A stretch of 55,929 nucleotides of DNA from Minisyncoccota bacterium (GTDB taxonomy: Bacteria; Patescibacteriota; Minisyncoccia; Phycocordibacterales; UBA9973): positions 1 through 55,929 of the forward strand of contig JAGOUX010000004.1 in the NCBI GenBank assembly GCA_018061035.1, given 5' to 3'. The notes under the pieces are model-generated. The model did no database searches. It had not been told where the DNA came from and saw nothing but the letters and a program-made list of their open reading frames with translations. This document shows, in pieces, positions 3,379 through 55,129 of this stretch; the first letter of the stretch is position 1, and each line of letters starts with the position of its first letter. The translations under genes were made by a program, and so were the position numbers.

Positions 3379-3819
3379 ATGAACAATAAGATCGAAGGCG
3401 AGGATTTGTTTGGCGGTTTGGATCTTGCGCGCGCCGTGTACCCGAGCATGCAGTCCGCACGGACGGGCCTGACACTCGACAACCTGGAGAAGTGGCAACA
3501 CGACCTCCAGAAACAGGAGGGACTCGACGGCCATCTCCTGCTCGAAGCGTTCGATCGCAAGCGCGGCATCGAGAGCTCAGCGAGCTTCGCCGATGTGGAG
3601 GTGTTGTGCGCACGGCACAGCGTCGATGGATTGTTTGCGCGTCTGCGTATTGGCCCCGGGGACATCCTCGGTCTCCCTAAATCAGCGTTCGTGACCGATG
3701 ACGGCATCAAGATGCCGGCACTCGCTCGTCTCGAAGCGGGCGTTGTTCCCATCATCATCCCGCTCGACGCCAAGACCAAACTCGGCGCCAACGTGTCGTT
3801 CCTCCGCCTCAACAGCTAG
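3379..3819 (+). CDS. hypothetical protein, G+C-rich cassette ORF A1
   Basis: GAGGAGG lies 4 nt before the ATG. A TTGACA-type promoter is upstream and the 85-bp hairpin/terminator module is downstream. No family recognised. Confidence 0.6.
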   Translation: MNNKIEGEDLFGGLDLARAVYPSMQSARTGLTLDNLEKWQHDLQKQEGLDGHLLLEAFDRKRGIESSASFADVEVLCARHSVDGLFARLRIGPGDILGLPKSAFVTDDGIKMPALARLEAGVVPIIIPLDAKTKLGANVSFLRLNS

Positions 3820-3828
3820 CCGACGCCT

Positions 3829-3913
3829 CGCCAACCACTTGCATGTGGATGGCGCAGAAATAGCGTCATTCATATGCAAGTGGACCAAGATTTATTCTTG
3901 TCCACTTGTTTTT
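3829..3913 (+). repeat. 85-bp module, copy 1 (long imperfect hairpin plus terminator hairpin)
   Basis: By reading, identical to 4556..4640. Stem CCACTTGCAT/ATGCAAGTGG, then AAGTGGAC..GTCCACTT followed by a T-run. Confidence 0.9.
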
Positions 3914-4057: not shown

Positions 4058-4549
4058 ATGCGGAATATGGAAAAGTTGTTTTCCGTACGCGAAGTCGCTT
4101 TCCCCGCTTGGGCAGCGGGGCGCCAGTTGTTCGAGGTTGGCCCGTCCCGTCGAGGCATTTCCTTTTCGGAGGTCGCCAAGATCGAGTGGGTGCCGGTGGA
4201 AGATGATATCTTCCCTGGAGAAGTCGTCGTCGAATTCGTTCAAGGCCGGGATCCCAACAAATTCCTCGGCCTGGCGGAGATGTGCGCCATGAAGTCGCAC
4301 TGGTTGGCGCTGTGGTCGGCGCTCAATCTCGAAGATCACGATGTGCTCGCTTTCCCGCGTGACATCGTGAAAGACAAAGACTGCTTCCTCGTCACCCCGG
4401 CGCTTGTCCGTCGGATGGTGCCGACGAGTGAGAAAGACTCGAATAGCGCGACGATCTGTGTGCCGCAGGTCCAGCGGTTCTGGACGCGGTTGAACGGAAA
4501 CAATAAGTTTAACAAGCGGCTCAAGATCGCCATGTTCAAGACACGCTGA
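4058..4549 (+). CDS. hypothetical protein, G+C-rich cassette ORF A2
   Basis: GGAGG lies 4 nt before the ATG. The promoter resembles that of A1, and an identical 85-bp module follows the stop. No family recognised. Confidence 0.6.
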   Translation: MRNMEKLFSVREVAFPAWAAGRQLFEVGPSRRGISFSEVAKIEWVPVEDDIFPGEVVVEFVQGRDPNKFLGLAEMCAMKSHWLALWSALNLEDHDVLAFPRDIVKDKDCFLVTPALVRRMVPTSEKDSNSATICVPQVQRFWTRLNGNNKFNKRLKIAMFKTR

Positions 4550-4555
4550 AGCGTG

Positions 4556-4640
4556 CGCCAACCACTTGCATGTGGATGGCGCAGAAATAGCGTCATTCAT
4601 ATGCAAGTGGACCAAGATTTATTCTTGTCCACTTGTTTTT
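4556..4640 (+). repeat. 85-bp module, copy 2
   Basis: Same 85 nt as 3829..3913, located directly after the stop of ORF A2. Confidence 0.9.
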
Positions 4641-46324: not shown

Positions 46325-47338
46325 ATGGAAAATAAAGAGAAAATAGTGCTTACAGGCGACCGTCCGACAGGAAGACTTCATTTGGGACATTACGTAGGCT
46401 CAATAAAAAATCGTGTAGCTTTACAGAATGAAGCAAGTAAGGCTTACTATATGGTGGCTGATATTCAAGCGCTCACAGATAATGCTGATAATCCAGAAAA
46501 AGTTCGCAGTAATGTGATGGAGGTAGTGCTCGACAATTTGGCTTGTGGAGTAGATCCAAAGAAAACCACTTTTTTCATACAATCGATGATTCCAGAGATT
46601 GCAGAGCTTACCGTATTATTTATGAATTTGGTCACAGTCCAACAGCTATCTCACAATCCTACTATCAAAACAGAGCTCAAAGAAAAAGGTTTGGCCGAGG
46701 GTACTCCGCTCGGATTTATGGCATACCCAGTGTCTCAGGCGGCAGATATACTTTTTTGCAAAGCTAATACTGTGCCTGTCGGGGTTGATCAGATGCCTGT
46801 ACTTGAGCAAGCGAATGATATTGTCAAAAAATTCAATGCGATATATGGAGTCGATTTATTTCCCAAGATTACCGGAGTGACGAGCTCTATCCCACGACTT
46901 GTAGGGATTGATGGCAATGCAAAAATGTCCAAATCTCTCGGTAATTGCATATTCCTTTCAGATTCCGACAAAGAAATAGAGGAAAAAGTCATGCAAGCTT
47001 TTACTGATCCTGATCATGTGCGGGTAGAAGACAAAGGTAAGGTAGAAGGCAATGTTGTTTTCACATACCTCGATGCATTCGATGAGGATAAAGCCGGCGT
47101 AGCAGAATTGAAAGAAAAATATCAACAAGGGGGATTAGGAGATGTGGTGCTTAAGAAAAGACTTACGAAAGTACTTGTAGATATCATCTCTCCAATACGA
47201 GCAAAACGTGAGGAATATGCCAAAGATCCTCAATATGTAATGAGCATTCTAGAAAAAGGAATTGCTGTTGCTCGTGAGGACGCAAAAAAAACCATGGAAG
47301 AAGTTCGCAAAGCTATCAAAATAGACTATTTTAGCTAA
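46325..47338 (+). CDS. trpS: tryptophan--tRNA ligase
   Basis: TGDRPTGRLHLGHYVG (HIGH) and KMSKS. Confidence 0.95.
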   Translation: MENKEKIVLTGDRPTGRLHLGHYVGSIKNRVALQNEASKAYYMVADIQALTDNADNPEKVRSNVMEVVLDNLACGVDPKKTTFFIQSMIPEIAELTVLFMNLVTVQQLSHNPTIKTELKEKGLAEGTPLGFMAYPVSQAADILFCKANTVPVGVDQMPVLEQANDIVKKFNAIYGVDLFPKITGVTSSIPRLVGIDGNAKMSKSLGNCIFLSDSDKEIEEKVMQAFTDPDHVRVEDKGKVEGNVVFTYLDAFDEDKAGVAELKEKYQQGGLGDVVLKKRLTKVLVDIISPIRAKREEYAKDPQYVMSILEKGIAVAREDAKKTMEEVRKAIKIDYFS

Positions 47339-47622
47339 TGAAAAATAATATCGAACAGTACAAACAAGAAGCAGTGGAAGTAATCCACAAAATTGGTAAG
47401 GATAAGAACCTGCTCGCACTTTTCTTGCGAGATATCCTAACCCCACGCGAATTCGAAAATATCGGCGTGCGCTGGCAGATAGTGAAGCGCTTGGCGAAAG
47501 GGGAGCATCATGCTGCCATAGCTGAGAGTCTTCATCTAGGTGTGGCGACTGTCACTAGGGGGTCCCGAGAAATGCGCAAAAAAGATGGCGGACTCCAAAA
47601 AGCATTGAAGGCTTTGAAATAA
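47338..47622 (+). CDS. TrpR-family (YerC/YecD-like) DNA-binding protein
   Basis: LTPREFENIGVRWQIVKRL...IAESLHLGVATVTRGSREM. The ATG overlaps the trpS stop (TAATG). Confidence 0.8.
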   Translation: MKNNIEQYKQEAVEVIHKIGKDKNLLALFLRDILTPREFENIGVRWQIVKRLAKGEHHAAIAESLHLGVATVTRGSREMRKKDGGLQKALKALK

Positions 47623-47868
47623 AAGCTAATTTTTACTTTATATATTGGTAATTTGAGTTTTCCACAGTAAGGCAATTTATTTACTTGCTTTATTTTTTTA
47701 TATATACTAGCATACTAGTATGATGATATTAAGAAATTTACAAATAAACACAAAGTATTGGCGCAGTTTTAGCAGCCAAGCTTTTGCGTCGATTTGTTAG
47801 TTTCTTTCTCTAGATAAGGAATTCACACACCGGCGTAAAAAGCGTCGTTTGTTCTTTATGGAGGCAGT

Positions 47869-48078
47869 ATGCCGTTGGATAAGCAAGTGTCTACTGAAGC
47901 AGTATCGCAGGTAAGTGGTTCTTACGAAACGGTTGGTGTGGGTGCCCATACTTTCATTCGCACGAGCCGTGAAGATAGTTCTGTTCTCGAGTGTCTGACT
48001 TGCGAGAAAAAAGGCACTGTAGAGCAGCTCGAAATCGAGCCATGTGAGTCGAAAGGTTCTCGGCGCGCTGGCTGGTAA
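47869..48078 (+). CDS. hypothetical small protein, cassette region F ORF1
   Basis: GGAGG lies 4 nt before the ATG. G+C-enriched. Contains CLTCEKK. Confidence 0.45.
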   Translation: MPLDKQVSTEAVSQVSGSYETVGVGAHTFIRTSREDSSVLECLTCEKKGTVEQLEIEPCESKGSRRAGW

Positions 48079-48107
48079 CAACTTCATCTTGAAAGGAGGT
48101 GATAATC

Positions 48108-48218
48108 ATGGTTCGTAACTGGATTGCTGCGGATGGGGACGGAAGTTCAACTCTAGCGCCTTGGCCTTACAAACATCGGCCAGGCAAGGTTCTCAAGTCG
48201 AAGGAGCCCAAGAAGTAA
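48108..48218 (+). CDS. hypothetical 36-aa peptide, cassette region F ORF2
   Basis: Hand translation gives MVRNWIAADGDGSSTLAPWPYKHRPGKVLKSKEPKK. AAAGGAGGTG lies 7 nt before the ATG, and a GC-rich hairpin follows at 48245..48272. Confidence 0.4.
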   Translation: MVRNWIAADGDGSSTLAPWPYKHRPGKVLKSKEPKK

Positions 48219-48244
48219 TACGGGCTTTATGCAAATCGTTTGGG

Positions 48245-48272
48245 GCGTCGCGTGTGGGATATCACGCGGCGC
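48245..48272 (+). terminator. GC-rich hairpin after region-F ORF2
   Basis: GCGTCGCGTG-loop-CACGCGGCGC. The T-run is weak. Confidence 0.5.
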
Positions 48273-48291
48273 TTCCCAAATTTCTTTACAC

Positions 48292-48319
48292 TTGCATTAT
48301 TTTATATTTACGCTATATT
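48292..48319 (+). promoter_or_regulatory. promoter upstream of leader copy L1
   Basis: TTGCAT (48292-97), 16 nt, TATATT (48314-19). Confidence 0.45.
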
Positions 48320-48394
48320 AAAAATGTGAACAGATTACAAGCAAACATTATCGTCGTCGACCTGAAGGGCTTCTTTTTTAAGAAGTACTCTTTC

Positions 48395-48510
48395 ATTTAG
48401 AAGACTGATGCTTGCGCTGTAACAACTCTCAAACAAACTACAACCCAAACACCAGCCTTCTAAAGTAAGACTGGTTTTTACTTTATCGGGTGTGGGTGTT
48501 CTTTCATCAA
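48395..48510 (+). ncRNA. structured 5' leader, copy L1 (candidate attenuator/riboswitch-like element)
   Basis: About 115 nt alignable to 49004..49125. Terminator hairpin CCAGCCTTC..GACTGG plus T-run (48452-48479). Upstream TTAGAAGACTG can pair with CAGCCTTCTAA. Confidence 0.55.
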
Positions 48511-48523
48511 CGGAGGCAAGCAT

Positions 48524-48844
48524 ATGCGAGGAAATACGGGCAAGGATCACGGTTCCAGCAATCCCGGATTTTTTGGTGGCTCTGATCATGGAGACACCGA
48601 GGGTTATGCCGAGATTGCTCGGCGAATCCGCGAAGCGGGGTCTGCGCAACCAGTGCAGACATCGGTCGAGAGCCCCAGGCTCGCGATGGTTCATGATCCC
48701 TTCGAGCTGCCGGAGACGGGGTCGCATCAGGCGTATACCAATCCGTGCTCGGAAAATTACGTTGCCACGGCCGCCAAGCCGCCACAGCGTGTCGTCGAGC
48801 GAGTGCCCTTTCGTATGAGTTCCAATCTCTCACGCAGAGACTAG
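48524..48844 (+). CDS. hypothetical protein, cassette region F ORF3
   Basis: ACGGAGG lies 7 nt before ATG 48524, so this frame is preferred over the overlapping 48492..48818 and antisense frames. A 13-bp-stem hairpin follows the stop. Confidence 0.5.
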   Translation: MRGNTGKDHGSSNPGFFGGSDHGDTEGYAEIARRIREAGSAQPVQTSVESPRLAMVHDPFELPETGSHQAYTNPCSENYVATAAKPPQRVVERVPFRMSSNLSRRD

Positions 48845-48857
48845 GGCTCAATCGGTC

Positions 48858-48889
48858 AGCGCCGCGTGTCCATCATGACACGCGGCGCT
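48858..48889 (+). terminator. GC-rich hairpin after region-F ORF3, sequence-related to 48245..48272
   Basis: AGCGCCGCGTGTC-loop-GACACGCGGCGCT (13-bp stem). Confidence 0.55.
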
Positions 48890-49003
48890 ACCAAAACTTA
48901 ATTTCGAAATAATTAATACATTACAAATAATTTATATATGTCATTATATGAAAGTGAATAAAAACCGACAGGAAATTAATAATGTTTTCTTTTTCAGCCC
49001 TCA

Positions 49004-49125
49004 ATTTAGAAGGCTGATCTTTGTGCTGTAAAAATAAACTCTCAAAAACGAACTACAACCCAAACACCAGCCCTCTAAAGGGGCTTTTCCTTTTTTAGGC
49101 GGTGTGGGGTTCTTTTTGTTCGTCG
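49004..49125 (+). ncRNA. structured 5' leader, copy L2
   Basis: Shares ATTTAGAAGnCTGAT...CTCAAA..ACTACAACCCAAACACCAGCC with L1. Terminator AGCCCTCTAAAGGGGCT plus T-run (49069-49096). Confidence 0.55.
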
Positions 49126-49152
49126 AAAACCAAATAGAGAGGATGTGAGGAA

Positions 49153-49521
49153 ATGAGACTTCCAGTGTTTCAAAAGTTGTTCTTTGTCGTGGATCATTCC
49201 GGAAGCTGTGGTGGAACTAGTGATGGCGGACGCAATCCAAGAAAAAGAAACAAGAAAGAGGTTGCTGAGAGAAATGCCGAAAAAGCAGCCGACGCCTTTT
49301 TCAATGCTCAGAATGACGTCGTTCGCGTGCAGAAAGAATTGGAAAACGCGAACGAGCACTACTGGAACACATTTTGGAGCATGAAGAAGTTTTGGGGAGG
49401 TAATCTCGTTGAGGCGGCTATGATGGTCGATGAGATGGAGAATAATTTGGTCACTGCTAGGGAGGTTTTGGCATCAGCCAGAGTCGCCGCTATCGCCGCC
49501 GCCAAAGTCGCGAAGGTGTGA
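49153..49521 (+). CDS. hypothetical coiled-coil-like protein, cassette region F ORF4
   Basis: Preceded by the second copy of the structured leader. TGAGGAA lies directly before the ATG. The C-terminal half is Ala/Glu-rich. Confidence 0.5.
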   Translation: MRLPVFQKLFFVVDHSGSCGGTSDGGRNPRKRNKKEVAERNAEKAADAFFNAQNDVVRVQKELENANEHYWNTFWSMKKFWGGNLVEAAMMVDEMENNLVTAREVLASARVAAIAAAKVAKV

Positions 49522-49664
49522 AAGATTCCATTGATTAGGTTTTGAGCTAAGAGATTGGTGGGATTGAGAGTTTGTGAAAACTCTACAAAAATTCACAGGT
49601 GATGGGGTCTACCTATCAAGTGGCTCTTAATGAAGTTCTTTGGAGGACGAAAGGAGGTGATGAA

Positions 49665-49928
49665 ATGATTCCTCAGAGTAGCTACTGGTTTGGTCCTGAC
49701 GACGAGCCACAAGGTGAACCACAACCCAAAAGTGACGCTCCGAAACTCGAGAATTTCTTCGATTTTCTCGACGAAGTTCTGCGGGGGCTGGTGCGGATGC
49801 CTGAAGGGGTGTTGGTGCACAACTCACACGAGTACTCACTGGAGCGACGACGGTGCAATACCTGCGATGCCGACGGCGAAAACCTCCAACAGCATTGCGT
49901 CGGCATTTGGCCGACCTTCGGCAACTAA
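49665..49928 (+). CDS. hypothetical small protein, cassette region F ORF5
   Basis: AAAGGAGGTG lies 6 nt before ATG 49665, the same SD context as ORF2. Followed by the 3' module 49936..50005. Confidence 0.5.
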   Translation: MIPQSSYWFGPDDEPQGEPQPKSDAPKLENFFDFLDEVLRGLVRMPEGVLVHNSHEYSLERRRCNTCDADGENLQQHCVGIWPTFGN

Positions 49929-49935
49929 TAGCAAC

Positions 49936-50005
49936 AGGTGTAGATCCTGATCACTCTACAGAAAGCCAGCAACACTCGAAAGGAGGAAATGTTGCTGGCT
50001 TTTTA
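49936..50005 (+). repeat. 3' module family, copy F (small hairpin plus terminator)
   Basis: AGGTGTAGATCCTGATCACTCTACAGAAAGCCAGCAACACTC...TGTTGCTGGCTTTTT. Confidence 0.8.
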
Positions 50006-50025
50006 TATTGTGTTAATATGTATTT

Positions 50026-50252
50026 AGAGCCGTTGAGCCAGCTGACACTGGGGAGGTAAAGGAAGACCCTTCGACTTTGCTCAGGGCAAGATCGAAGATG
50101 TAGAACCTTTCGGGTAAGCCCGTTAAAGCTGTAATGAAGTATCCTCCTTCGCTAAAGCTATGGAGGACAAGAAGTAGGGTGGCACCGCGAAATATCGCCC
50201 CTGCAAATTTATCAGATTAAAAGATAAGTTTGGAGAGGCGATTTTTTGTTTT
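50026..50252 (+). promoter_or_regulatory. T-box leader upstream of aspS
   Basis: AAGTAGGGTGGCACCGCG (50172-50189) matches the T-box consensus AANNNGGGTGGNACCGCG. AGAG..GTTGA near the 5' end is GA-motif-like. A terminator helix ATCGCC(50194-99)/GGCGAT(50237-42) is followed by a T-run. A GAC (Asp) candidate specifier lies at 50065-50067. Confidence 0.8.
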
Positions 50253-50266
50253 CTCCACAGTAAATT

Positions 50267-51652
50267 ATGAAAAACAGAATATATATAAAAGATCTTAAGG
50301 GAAGTATTGGGCAAGAAGTAATTATTGCCGGATGGGTGGATGTGCGTCGAGACCAAGGCAAAATGGTCTTCTTTGATATGCGAGATATGACTGGCAAGGT
50401 GCAATGCGTGACCCTACCAATTCATCCCGAAGCAATAGCTAGTGCAAAGGAAATCAGGCCAGAGTGGGTGCTGATCGTAAAAGGCATAGTGAAGGCTCGC
50501 ACTGATAAAAACGCAGAAGCTGGTGGTGGTGTCGAGATTGAGGTTACAGGTATAGAAGTACTAAATAAAGCAGAGACCACTCCTTTTCAGATCACCGAAT
50601 CTACATCAGGCATCAACGAGGATTTGAGAATGAAATATAAGTATCTTGATCTCCGCACAGAGCGAATGCAGAAGAATATTCGTATGCGAGACAAGATTAT
50701 CACCTTTTTCCGCAAATACATGCACGACAATGATTTTATCGAAATTGAAACACCAATATTAATGAAGGGAACTCCGGAAGGTTCTCGTGAGTATGTAGTA
50801 CCTTCTCGAATTTTCAACGGACAGTTTTATGTGTTGCCTCAATCTCCTCAGCAGTTCAAACAGCTTTCTATGGTGGCTGGTTTTGAAAAGTATTTCCAAA
50901 TCGCTCGCTGTATGCGTGACGAAGACACACGAGGTGATAGACAGCCGGAATTCACCCAGCTCGACTTCGAGATGTCATTCGTAACTCAAGAAGAAGTTCT
51001 TGAATATACAGAAGCGATGTTCATTGAACTCGTAAAGACCGTGTACCCAGAGAAAAAGATAACTCAGATTCCTTTTCCAAGAATTTCATACGCTGAATCT
51101 ATGGAGAAGTATGGATCAGACAAGCCGGACATGCGAGTGAATAAGGAAGATCCGAATGAGCTTGCTTTTGCATGGGTTCTAGATTTCCCAATGTTTGAAA
51201 AGACAGATGATGGCGAGCTTCAGGCAGTGCATCATCCATTTTGCTCTATCAAAGAGGAGGACAAGGCCAAGTTTATGAGTGGGGAGGATATGTTTTCAAT
51301 TCGTGCCAATGCTTATGATCTAGTATTAAACGGCTACGAACTTTCTTCAGGATCTATTCGTATCCACGAGCGAGAAGTACAAAAGAGAGTATTCGAATTA
51401 TTGAAAATCAGCGAGGAAGTACAGCAGGCAAAATTTGGCCACATGCTCGAAGCATTTACTTTTGGCGCACCTCCACACGGAGGCTTCGCTCCCGGTATTG
51501 ATCGTATTGTTATGATCCTCCAAAACGAGCCAAACATTCGTGAAGTCATAGCCTTCCCAAAGACAGGTGAAGGTAGAGACCTTATGATGGGTGCTCCAGC
51601 TCCAATCACTGACAAACAGCTTAAAGAGCTCGGAATTAAACTCGGCAAATAA
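50267..51652 (+). CDS. aspS: aspartate--tRNA ligase, compact (461 aa)
   Basis: OB-fold N-terminus, QSPQQFKQL, class II motifs (FQIARCMRDED, GGFAPGIDR). Confidence 0.93.
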   Translation: MKNRIYIKDLKGSIGQEVIIAGWVDVRRDQGKMVFFDMRDMTGKVQCVTLPIHPEAIASAKEIRPEWVLIVKGIVKARTDKNAEAGGGVEIEVTGIEVLNKAETTPFQITESTSGINEDLRMKYKYLDLRTERMQKNIRMRDKIITFFRKYMHDNDFIEIETPILMKGTPEGSREYVVPSRIFNGQFYVLPQSPQQFKQLSMVAGFEKYFQIARCMRDEDTRGDRQPEFTQLDFEMSFVTQEEVLEYTEAMFIELVKTVYPEKKITQIPFPRISYAESMEKYGSDKPDMRVNKEDPNELAFAWVLDFPMFEKTDDGELQAVHHPFCSIKEEDKAKFMSGEDMFSIRANAYDLVLNGYELSSGSIRIHEREVQKRVFELLKISEEVQQAKFGHMLEAFTFGAPPHGGFAPGIDRIVMILQNEPNIREVIAFPKTGEGRDLMMGAPAPITDKQLKELGIKLGK

Positions 51653-52887: not shown

Positions 52888-52957
52888 AAAAATACCAGCG
52901 AAAGGGACTCTGTGAGAGTGTTGCTGGTATTTTGGAGAGTGATTAGGATCTCCACCT
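52888..52957 (-). repeat. 3' module family, copy G1 (after the AstE-like gene)
   Basis: The minus strand reads AGGTGGAGATCCTAATCACTCTCCAAAATACCAGCAACACTC...CGCTGGTATTTTT. Confidence 0.8.
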
Positions 52958-52971
52958 AGTACTTTCGGCCG

Positions 52972-53802
52972 CTAGCAATAGCAACCGAAATAAAATGCTT
53001 CTTTCCCGACTCCATCACAGTCGTCTGCGAAGAGGATGAGCCCATCCTTCTTCGCGGTGACTTCAACATCGCCGTCGTGGCCGATGATTTCACCCTTGTT
53101 TACGGGCTCGAAATCTTTCCACTCCCGTGCGCGTTTGAACCCGCTCGCGGTTGTGTGGTAGATTTCTTCGATCTGAACTCGCTCCTTGGAGATGATATCC
53201 ATCTCATCTTCCACAAGAGTGATGTGTCCTCGAGCATGAAGGAAGCCGAAAATTGCAAGGGAGGCCTTTGACACTACGCTTGGGTCCTCGTGATGTCCGC
53301 ACTCGACACAGACACCGATTCTGCCTGCCCGATTCATGTACTCGTCGGTTCCACCAGGACAGACCTGGTCAAAACCCGAGACGATAATTTCGACAGGAAG
53401 TTTCTCGGCGATGAATATGCCGTTCTGTTCGCAGATTGCGAATGGCTTGCTTTCAGGCGTGTCGCTCGAGTGGATATCGAGTAGTGCACCGGCCTCGTCG
53501 AGATAAGACTTCAAGTACCCAGCGCGGTGGTACTCGTAGGTGTGTTTGTGCCACTCATAGTATGCGCTCGGCGCCATGAACGCGCGGTTCAGGTCGAATT
53601 CTGTAAAGCGCATGTTTTTGGCGACGGCGTTGGGGTTGCCCACGACGAGAAAAACCGTGCCCCATTCAATCTTGAGCCCATCTTGCACAAAGAGCTCCTC
53701 AAACGCTTGAAGCCCACAAGGTTCATTGCCGTGGACTCCAGCCAGGATTACGCTTGTTGGGCCCGGCATGGACCCTGTAATCCTTATGACTTCTTCTCTC
53801 AT
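52972..53802 (-). CDS. succinylglutamate desuccinylase/aspartoacylase (AstE/AspA, M14-like) family protein, G+C-rich
   Basis: ILAGVHGNEPCG, DLNRAF, LLDIHS, VECGHH motifs. Own promoter TTGTCT-N17-TATATT on the minus strand, with the 3' module downstream. Confidence 0.75.
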   Translation of the reverse strand: MREEVIRITGSMPGPTSVILAGVHGNEPCGLQAFEELFVQDGLKIEWGTVFLVVGNPNAVAKNMRFTEFDLNRAFMAPSAYYEWHKHTYEYHRAGYLKSYLDEAGALLDIHSSDTPESKPFAICEQNGIFIAEKLPVEIIVSGFDQVCPGGTDEYMNRAGRIGVCVECGHHEDPSVVSKASLAIFGFLHARGHITLVEDEMDIISKERVQIEEIYHTTASGFKRAREWKDFEPVNKGEIIGHDGDVEVTAKKDGLILFADDCDGVGKEAFYFGCYC

Positions 53803-54232: not shown

Positions 54233-54298
54233 AAAACCGGTCAACATATCTCCTTTGAGTGTTGCCGGTTTTCTGGAGAGCGATCAGGATCTCCACCT
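54233..54298 (-). repeat. 3' module family, copy G2 (after the 80-aa ORF; also terminates the PCD gene on the plus strand)
   Basis: The minus strand reads AGGTGGAGATCCTGATCGCTCTCCAGAAAACCGGCAACACTC...GACCGGTTTTTT. Confidence 0.8.
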
Positions 54299-54323
54299 GT
54301 TGCGTTACTTGTGCGCCTTTGCA

Positions 54324-55070: not shown

Positions 55071-55129
55071 ATATAGCTGTGGAAAACTCCAGTTGATATA
55101 GTAAATATATTGTTAAATTTAATAATTAG

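Follow-up and report, generated by a model that had tools for sequence, protein, structure and literature searches.

The stretch of DNA analyzed here (hereafter the window) comprises 55,929 nucleotides of contig JAGOUX010000004.1 from a Minisyncoccota bacterium (assembly GCA_018061035.1), with a G+C content of about 41%. Between a TrpR-like gene and aspS lies a block of 2.4 kb (positions 47,623 to 50,005) that is made up of three units, each consisting of an AT-rich promoter, a leader, one or two small open reading frames (ORFs), and a terminal hairpin (Table 1). Unit 1 carries ORF1 and ORF2, which are probably co-transcribed, unit 2 carries ORF3, and unit 3 carries ORF4 and ORF5. A sequence-only reading of the window had described five plus-strand ORFs, two of them encoding a CxxC motif, a duplicated leader ahead of ORF3 and ORF4, and a modular, repetitive non-coding scaffold around these unrelated tiny ORFs, all of which we find again, with slight corrections to the coordinates of ORF2 and ORF5. 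Its account did not include the small ORF that is conserved inside each leader, nor a third, diverged leader with a TrpR-type operator before ORF1.

Every one of the five ORFs has a GGAGG- or GAGGA-type ribosome-binding site (RBS) upstream, as read in the sequence. The context AAAGGAGGTGAT, noted earlier as common to ORF2 and ORF5, is present at both but trivial, being presumably the complement of the 16S rRNA 3' tail, i.e. an extended RBS. The G+C content of the ORFs lies above the value of about 0.41 of the genes flanking the block, and their third-position GC ranges from 0.46 to 0.61, compared to 0.34-0.41 in trpS and aspS.

Table 1. Features of the block and its neighborhood, numbered from the first nucleotide of the window.
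Feature	Position	Strand	Details
trpS	46325-47338		upstream of the block
TrpR-like gene	47338-47622		Pfam Trp_repressor, E 4e-15
DnaA-box-like motif GTTTTCCACAG	47657-47667	+	directly after trpR; GTTATCCACAG in five related species
Unit 1 promoter	47680-47721	+	TTTACT, 17 nt, TATACT (promoter scan)
Candidate TrpR operator, near-palindrome ATACTAGCATACTAGTAT	47704-47721		over the -10 box of unit 1
Trp-type leader ORF, MMILRNLQINTKYWRSFSSQAFASIC then stop	47720-47800	+	one Trp codon; tandem WW in most relatives
Terminator-like hairpin CGGCG..CGTCG and U-run, with TTTGTTCTTT	47831-47857	+	between Trp-type leader ORF and ORF1 (terminator scan)
ORF1	47869-48078	+	69 aa, CxxC (CLTC), orphan
ORF2	48108-48218	+	36 aa, ATG at 48108, RBS AAAGGAGGTGAT
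GC-rich hairpin GCGTCGCGTG..CACGCGGCGC	48243-48278	+	end of unit 1, without U-tract
Unit 2 promoter	48292-48325	+	TTGCAT, 16 nt, TATATT, then 6 nt to GTG
Leader ORF 1, MNRLQANIIVVDLKGFFFKKYSFI then stop	48326-48400	+	FFF; minority class ending at TAG in the conserved block
Predicted attenuator RNA, copy 1	48363-48506	+	covariance model, 101.8 bits
Predicted antiterminator, copy 1	48396-48465		-14.6 kcal/mol (folding)
Predicted terminator and U-run, copy 1	48449-48484		-6.3 kcal/mol (folding)
ORF3	48524-48844	+	106 aa, 59% G+C, orphan
Perfect 13-bp GC-rich hairpin AGCGCCGCGTGTC..GACACGCGGCGCT	48857-48892	+	end of unit 2
Unit 3 -10 box CATTAT	48942-48953	+	TG before the box, 6-nt spacer after
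Leader ORF 2, MNKNRQEINNVFFFSPQFRRLIFVL then stop	48954-49031	+	FFF; canonical frame ending CTG TAA
Predicted attenuator RNA, copy 2	48972-49117	+	covariance model, 104.7 bits
Predicted antiterminator, copy 2	49005-49080		-15.7 kcal/mol (folding)
Predicted terminator AGCCCC..GGGGCT and U-run, copy 2	49069-49096		-8.3 kcal/mol (folding, terminator scan)
ORF4	49153-49521	+	122 aa, predicted helical hairpin
ORF5	49665-49928	+	87 aa, CxxC (CNTC)
ORF5 3' module	49935-50005	+	hairpin TGTAGA..TCTACA, then terminator hairpin GCCAGCAACA..TGTTGCTGGC and TTTTT
T-box before aspS	50024-50205		sub-threshold Rfam match: 45.2 bits (gathering score 93), E 4.7e-8
aspS	50267-51652		downstream of the block

The duplication of the leader is far above chance, as the window has exactly two occurrences of its 22-nt core AACTACAACCCAAACACCAGCC where 0 are expected, and the two copies, in units 2 and 3, align over about 115-145 nt. 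A covariance model that had been built from other genomes finds both copies, and everything else in the window scores 21 bits or less. Beyond the window, the core is present in five species-representative genomes, the upstream block GGCTGATnTTTGCGCTGTAA gives 65 loci in such genomes, a third search pattern adds 14 further loci, and at least 120 metagenome contigs match the leader pattern. Nearly all of these matches belong to genome bins of Candidatus Nomurabacteria or Paceibacterota, often with several loci per genome. About 150 distinct leader copies were found (152 in the census of small ORFs), and the covariance model detects 86 copies at 73-139 bits among the collected related loci and contigs, which are designated by L-numbers below; L043, L064, L081, and L082 were set aside as chance pattern matches. 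The leader family has no match in Rfam 15, and no description of it was found in the full-text literature searched. It also has no match in 2.9 million IMG/VR viral contigs, and a phage or mobile-element origin of the leader was rejected on this ground. In the window, Rfam gives no match anywhere at gathering thresholds; at relaxed thresholds, only miRNA-like hairpins are matched over the leaders, together with the sub-threshold T-box before aspS. A search for tRNA and tmRNA genes found none.

The small ORF inside the leader starts directly behind the promoter. Among the 152 distinct leaders, 111 start with GTG and 41 with ATG; in 127 the start codon follows the -10 box at a distance of exactly 6 nt, and in 96 a TG extension precedes this box. 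An RBS for the leader ORF could not be seen by eye, and the distance of 6 nt from the -10 box to the GTG or ATG suggests a leaderless mRNA. The leader peptides are mostly 23-35 codons long and their ORFs end in a conserved block, T-TAG-AAGGC-TGA-TnTTTGCGCTG-TAA, which provides a stop in every frame because TAG, TGA, and TAA all lie within it. The canonical in-frame end, CTG-TAA, is used in 108 leaders, whereas 35 stop at the TGA and 8 at the TAG. Judged from the sequences, the leader frame is kept despite many independent length changes, unlike non-coding sequence.

The consensus leader peptide is MNKNIQAN..(run)..S..RRLIFAL followed by the stop codon. Of the 152 peptides, 84 include a run of three or more identical residues (F 55, L 12, I 9, V 4, Y 2, C 2), compared to 22 on average and 33 at most for shuffled leader peptides, and both window leaders of units 2 and 3 carry FFF. 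In 54 of the 84 leaders with a run, the run of codons ends 12-13 nt ahead of GAAGGCUG, which is the antiterminator strand described below.

Two alternative helices are predicted downstream of the codon run. The reverse strand of each window leader weakly matches the covariance model, which led us to see that the leader is self-complementary: the last 27 nt or so of the leader ORF (the last nine codons), TTTAGAAGGCTGATnTTTGCGCTGTAA, are complementary to the invariant core downstream, TTACAACCCAAACACCAGCCYTCTAAA. The resulting antiterminator is modeled with 25 pairs, among which 21 positions are paired in more than 80% of the sequences and 4 are conserved mismatches. Pairing in its extended form amounts to 80.5% overall and drops to 30-45% if the partner strand is shifted along. 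The core's 3' end, ACACCAGCC, doubles as the 5' arm of a terminator hairpin that is followed by a U-run. Within this terminator helix, 91% of the cells are paired, 8 of the 10 pairs show compensatory double changes, and the covariation score is reached by none of 500 shuffles; a weaker upstream helix, CAGCC/GGCTG, is paired in 74-80%. The terminator and the antiterminator are mutually exclusive, because both use CAGCC. Since the antiterminator folds more strongly than the terminator (Table 1), transcription would by default read through as long as no ribosome covers the 5' strand.

In the homologous loci, downstream genes of known function all belong to amino-acid biosynthesis, and the codon run matches their pathway. 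Leaders with FFF precede a chorismate mutase (L015), a prephenate dehydratase (L200), and class IV aminotransferases (L007, L183, L228, L278), and a YYY leader precedes another chorismate mutase (L286). CCC is found before the serine acetyltransferase CysE (L080; 244 bits, cut-off 211), a K/T/V-rich leader before the aspartate-semialdehyde dehydrogenase Asd (L015), and WW together with a TrpR-type operator before TrpB (L097; 577 bits, cut-off 392). By analogy, this match between the codon run and the downstream gene, hereafter the cargo, would be the logic of classical attenuation. Such cognate metabolic cargo is seen in the homologues, whereas in the window the cargo consists of five orphan ORFs instead. 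Sparing of Phe in the cargo behind FFF was considered and rejected, as the difference is only small (3.7% Phe, compared to 4.4-4.7% behind L runs, I runs, or no run and 5.0% for long ORFs).

The leader of unit 1 is of a different type. About 110 nt after trpR are kept in five related species, including the DnaA-box-like motif, the -35 box, the near-palindrome ATACTAGCATACTAGTAT, and the ATG of the small ORF. The palindrome is invariant in an alignment of 6 species, occurs a single time in the window (0.17 expected), and agrees at 14 of 18 positions with what we take to be the E. coli trpO sequence, GTACTAGTTAACTAGTAC. At least 13 homologous leaders combine W or WW with a TrpR-operator-like palindrome (window, L009, L029, L036, L089, L095, L097, L105, L183, L214, L222, L228, L229), as exemplified by MLILNRLQINRFWWRINDFIFALFR, followed by a stop codon, in L097. 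The same operator and leader are predicted to control trpB in L097 and ORF1-ORF2 in the window. With a score of 9.6 bits, the covariance model does not recognize the leader of unit 1 as a member of the main family, and we place it in a related Trp-type family, of which it is, with moderate confidence, a degenerate member.

Some further observations concern this region. A Trp-type leader is also found before a conserved protein of about 480 aa (L105, L214), which has no Pfam match in the L105 copy and may be an unrecognised tryptophan-related gene. The DnaA-box-like motif, as GTTTTCCACAG or GTTATCCACAG, fits the DnaA-box consensus TTWTNCACA and lies a short way upstream of promoters, and its count in the window is not above chance; it also occurs at 55077-55087 (minus strand) and, by eye, upstream of several leaders elsewhere. 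The TrpR-like gene scores 41 bits against an NCBIfam TrpR equivalog cut-off of 67.

We consider it likely that the block, part of a Nomurabacteria-type genome, comprises three tandem, separately promoted units, each gated by a leader-peptide transcription attenuator, and the best-supported assignment would be one Trp-type unit with a TrpR operator and two Phe-type units. This reading draws on the anatomy of the block, the conservation of the leader frame, the covarying alternative helices, the match between run and cargo that is seen in homologous loci, and a cargo that is orphan and subject to turnover. In units 2 and 3, transcription would start about 6 nt past the extended -10 box, at the GTG, which would open a leaderless ORF of 24-25 codons with its FFF run. 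The last 27 nt or so of this ORF could then pair with the core to form the antiterminator, or the 3' part of the core could instead form the terminator hairpin with its U-run. A ribosome reaching the stop codon would cover the 5' strand, so that the terminator forms and transcription ends. A ribosome stalled at the Phe codons would sit at least 12-13 nt upstream of the 5' strand and leave it free. Both positions agree with an estimate of the ribosome footprint, by which a stall on the run leaves the strand free and a ribosome at the stop codon covers it. With a stalled or absent ribosome, the more stable antiterminator would form and the downstream ORFs would be transcribed. Unit 1 would be a diverged Trp-codon version of the same design, with a TrpR-type operator over its promoter in addition. 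The direction of the switch and any function of the cargo are inferred. The cargo itself would be lineage-specific and of fast turnover, replaced wholesale or in mosaic between species and even between strains, and our best guess is that it encodes starvation-induced small, often zinc-ribbon-like, proteins.

Several points weigh against this interpretation. The transcription start at the GTG and the leaderless initiation are deduced solely from promoter geometry. The RRLIFAL frame is not kept in 44 of the 152 leaders, window leader 1 included, and therefore the peptide sequence is probably not essential; the nucleotides of the leader could be conserved more for the RNA than for coding. The antiterminator shows limited covariation, as both of its strands are nearly invariant, and two of the search patterns had forced one antiterminator strand to be constant. 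The terminators of both window leaders are weak. The leader of unit 1 has a single Trp codon in addition to its low model score, and an alternative pairing with its leader ORF, noticed on visual inspection only, is not established. As for the match between run and cargo, a function is known for only about a dozen cargo genes, the CCC run in L080 needs the canonical start codon (the other start gives LLLL), and a CCC leader in L232 (1445-1612) precedes a 55-aa Cys-rich ORF (MCDAYTAKCKKHKVKHDISEECPECLKE...), opposite to cysteine sparing. Finally, the coding status of ORF1, ORF2, and ORF3 is uncertain, as it is judged from an RBS and an open frame alone.

None of the five ORFs belongs to a known family, in agreement with the sequence-only reading: Pfam, PADLOC, PHROGs, and NCBIfam give nothing significant, the best scores being 13-16 bits, and neither the window nor about 80 related loci yield a paralogue or homologue of ORF1-5. 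Among 5.8 billion protein clusters, ORF3 and ORF4 match only themselves or near-identical variants. ORF5 has one relative in the same clusters, with 95% protein identity, in a related species. An exhaustive HMMER search with ORF1 against 1.8 billion representatives yields only a strain variant of 97% identity plus spurious repeat proteins. Alternative frames had been mentioned earlier as possible real genes, and no alternative frame has a match to any family, Pfam included; the annotated frames are favored by codon-position GC for ORF4 and ORF5 only, and by the substitution pattern for ORF5. Structure prediction gives a generic helical hairpin for ORF4 (pLDDT 67) and a model of low confidence for ORF5 (pLDDT 55). 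We also considered the cargo as structured RNA and rejected this, as the bodies of ORF3 and ORF4 fold no better than shuffled sequence (z -2.2 and -0.5) and the stronger fold z-scores near ORF3 and ORF2 came from the terminal hairpins.

Comparison with related loci indicates how fast the cargo changes. ORF5, the best-supported coding gene of the five, shows 95.8% nucleotide identity to L086 with 5 synonymous and 4 non-synonymous codon changes, whereas the spacer before it is only 82.5% identical, and an upstream GTG extension is not kept at the protein level. ORF4 is a mosaic, with the first 26 codons or so and the 3' end retained in L086, an unrelated middle, and a stop codon that is not conserved. 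In strain L003, from the same sample as a window-like contig, leader 2 is kept with a wholly different ORF in place of ORF4, and divergence increases along the leader in the 3' direction. Between near-identical strains, single-nucleotide polymorphisms are too few for a test of selection, those in ORF1 being 1 synonymous and 2 non-synonymous. At a larger scale, the order trpS-(trpR)-aspS is widespread, and where trpR is present the gap to aspS measures 1.3-2.9 kb and differs in content in every species examined. It contains TrpB in L097, two ORFs of the LPCGC family described below in L089, unknown larger ORFs in L088 and L105, and canonical leaders in L086, L091, L092, L098, and L105. One contig, L005 (GCA_020047435.1), agrees fully with the window as far as 48166, a position within ORF2, and continues with a HemY_N-like gene of about 65% G+C; this apparent foreign insertion in ORF2 (L005:1404-2096) is most simply a chimeric metagenome assembly.

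Across the leader family, the cargo has a median length of 81 aa, its G+C content is above that of its own locus in 74 of 82 cases, and 64 of the 82 cargo ORFs are singletons. A cargo family of 11 members (..EWF..LPCGC..GWVH..C) recurs behind leaders in different species. Compared to the long ORFs of the same loci, the cargo contains 3-4 times as much Cys and about twice as much Arg and Trp.

These data bear on an alternative that we regard as unlikely, namely that the five ORFs are non-functional G+C-rich filler, acquired or degraded, lying behind old biosynthetic attenuators, with ORF1-ORF2 having replaced trpB. The large share of singletons, the lack of relatives beyond near-identical strains for four of the five ORFs, the loss of the stop and middle of ORF4 in L086, the overlap of ORF3 by ORFs of 108-130 aa in other frames, and the presence of the same operator and leader before TrpB in L097 would all be expected of filler. 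Filler would not explain the strong, correctly spaced RBS at every ORF, the better conservation of ORF5 than of its flanks with an excess of synonymous changes, or the coding-like codon-position GC in ORF4 and ORF5. The recurrence of the LPCGC..GWVH family across species and the distinctive, Cys-, Arg-, and Trp-enriched composition of the cargo also argue against it. Moreover, a decayed biosynthetic gene leaves no trace here, as no residual similarity to TrpB, prephenate dehydratase, chorismate mutase, IlvE, CysE, or Asd could be found in any frame.

It is still less probable that the leader is a gene of its own, encoding a functional peptide of 24-30 aa or a trans-acting small RNA of about 130 nt, and that the downstream ORFs are unrelated to it. 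The leader does carry a promoter and a terminator of its own, genomes hold several copies of it, and its core is nearly invariant. Trans-acting attenuator RNAs and leader peptides are also reported in Sinorhizobium (PMC6614838, PMC7298713), which gives such trans functions a precedent. In most loci, however, only about 55-130 nt lie between the terminator and the start of the downstream ORF, with no separate promoter seen there by eye, and the type of codon run follows the pathway of the downstream gene. The leader variants with a broken frame keep the RNA sequence, which speaks against a functional peptide, and a role in trans could add to attenuation without replacing it.

The suggestion of the sequence-only reading that the block is a small-protein conflict system (toxin-antitoxin, anti-defence, or secreted effectors) seems very unlikely to us and has no positive evidence in its favor. 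The genes are small, fast-evolving, strain-variable, often paired (ORF1-ORF2, ORF4-ORF5), and located in a variable hot spot, and the organism, a member of the candidate phyla radiation (CPR), probably lives attached to other cells, but the best database scores are those typical of coiled-coil or CxxC noise, no toxin fold is predicted for ORF4 or ORF5, the leader is absent from the viral contigs, and amino-acid-specific attenuators are not a known feature of such systems.

The ends of the units show a modularity of their own. The GC-rich hairpins after ORF2 and ORF3 are related, as proposed before, through the shared arms GCGYCGCGTGT and ACACGCGGCGC; neither has a U-tract that passes the terminator scan, and hairpins of this type were not found in the loci of other species. 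The 3' module of ORF5 recurs, as had been seen, at 52888-52960 and 54233-54300, on the minus strand and thus in opposite orientation, with a compensatory change in the small hairpin (TGGAGA..TCTCCA). Because these copies sit 3' of two minus-strand genes, one of which is not GC-rich, the module is a generic terminator module of the genome and not a cassette feature. One of these genes (52972-53802, minus strand) is G+C-rich (about 0.54) and encodes a product of 276 aa that by eye resembles the succinylglutamate desuccinylase/aspartoacylase family. Elsewhere in the window, an 85-nt direct repeat (3829-3913 and 4556-4640, 100% identical) with a terminator-like hairpin at its end follows two G+C-rich ORFs (3379-3819 and 4058-4549) and represents another shared 3' module. 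Integron gene cassettes, whose attC sites are imperfect palindromes with GTTRRRY cores, were rejected, as the hairpins of the block are short, perfect GC palindromes, no such cores were seen by eye and no integrase lies in the trpR-aspS interval, with no dedicated attC model having been run. Downstream of the block, the Rfam T-box model is matched end to end before aspS with Stem I nearly all missing (74 model positions reduced to 4 nt), and this region is kept upstream of aspS in many related genomes.

A CRISPR (clustered regularly interspaced short palindromic repeats) array with the repeat GTTTCAATCCGCTTTAGACGCGAAGTATTCACCAAC is present in L035 (5915-7580; JALHNX010000047.1), a contig binned as Pyrinomonadaceae, which is not a CPR genome because the array adjoins a 1587-aa hybrid histidine kinase. 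One of its spacers, TACAAATTAGAAGGCTGATATTTGCGCTGTAAAA, located beside a degenerate terminal repeat, matches the conserved Nomurabacteria leader (L039, L178) at 32 of 34 positions, and may record contact between this bacterium and Nomurabacteria DNA.

If the attenuator reading is correct for the block, it may be extended, as a tentative proposal that we hold to be possible rather than probable, to a genome-wide 'ribulon' in Nomurabacteria and related CPR bacteria. One scaffold would there be re-coded for at least eight amino acids, and its main output would be hypervariable Cys- and Arg-rich micro-proteins that are switched on by amino-acid shortage, not biosynthesis. If so, the micro-proteins could be a response to a failing supply from the host, strains would trade new cargo through recombination in the conserved leader and in the 3' flank, and the L035 spacer against the leader would record physical contact with such cells. 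CPR bacteria have tiny genomes with almost no biosynthesis and very few known regulators, and their nutrient sensing is largely uncharted. The attenuator family offers a testable answer to how they sense nutrients, and the covariance model a handle on genes induced by shortage. The cargo points to unexplored starvation-induced small proteins, or to a site of gene birth behind a ready regulated promoter, in regions that are now annotated as hypothetical ORFs on either strand.

The leaders resemble the classical attenuators of E. coli (trpL, pheL, leuL, ilvL, hisL) in having a short leader ORF with a run of the regulating codons, a mutually exclusive terminator and antiterminator upstream of structural genes, and agreement between codon run and cargo wherever a function of the cargo has been assigned (Trp, Phe, Tyr, Cys). 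The E. coli trp operon joins its attenuator to a TrpR operator, and unit 1 is similar in this respect, with a putative TrpR-type operator. Unlike the classical systems, the leader ORF is apparently leaderless here, with its GTG 6 nt after the -10 box and no RBS seen, and one antiterminator strand is made of the stop codon and last nine codons of the leader ORF itself. A single homologous scaffold carries F, L, I, V, Y, C, W, or K/T codons, and most of the cargo, including all of that in the window, consists of tiny orphan proteins and not of biosynthetic operons. The host, moreover, is a reduced CPR genome.

T-box leaders are also cis-acting, sense amino-acid or tRNA-charging status, and switch between a terminator and an antiterminator. 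No Rfam T-box match is found in the repeated leaders, which contain a translated ORF, as we interpret it, instead of a tRNA-binding Stem I and T-box sequence. A parallel to the collective aspect is the mycobacterial 'Cys ribulon' (Canestrari et al., 10.1101/834739), in which polycysteine leaderless small ORFs reportedly sense a single amino acid through ribosome pausing. The leaders resemble it in their many independent copies and, as predicted here, in leaderless small ORFs starting at a 5' AUG or GUG and in a collective response, and differ in that the alternative structure is an intrinsic terminator, so that control would be transcriptional, and in the other amino acids, sequence, and lineage involved. 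The leader family, undescribed in Rfam 15 and in the literature searched, is set apart from its closest known counterparts, the classical trp and phe attenuators and the mycobacterial small ORFs, by its switch geometry, its re-coding of one scaffold for many amino acids, and, most of all, its cargo of hypervariable orphan micro-proteins.

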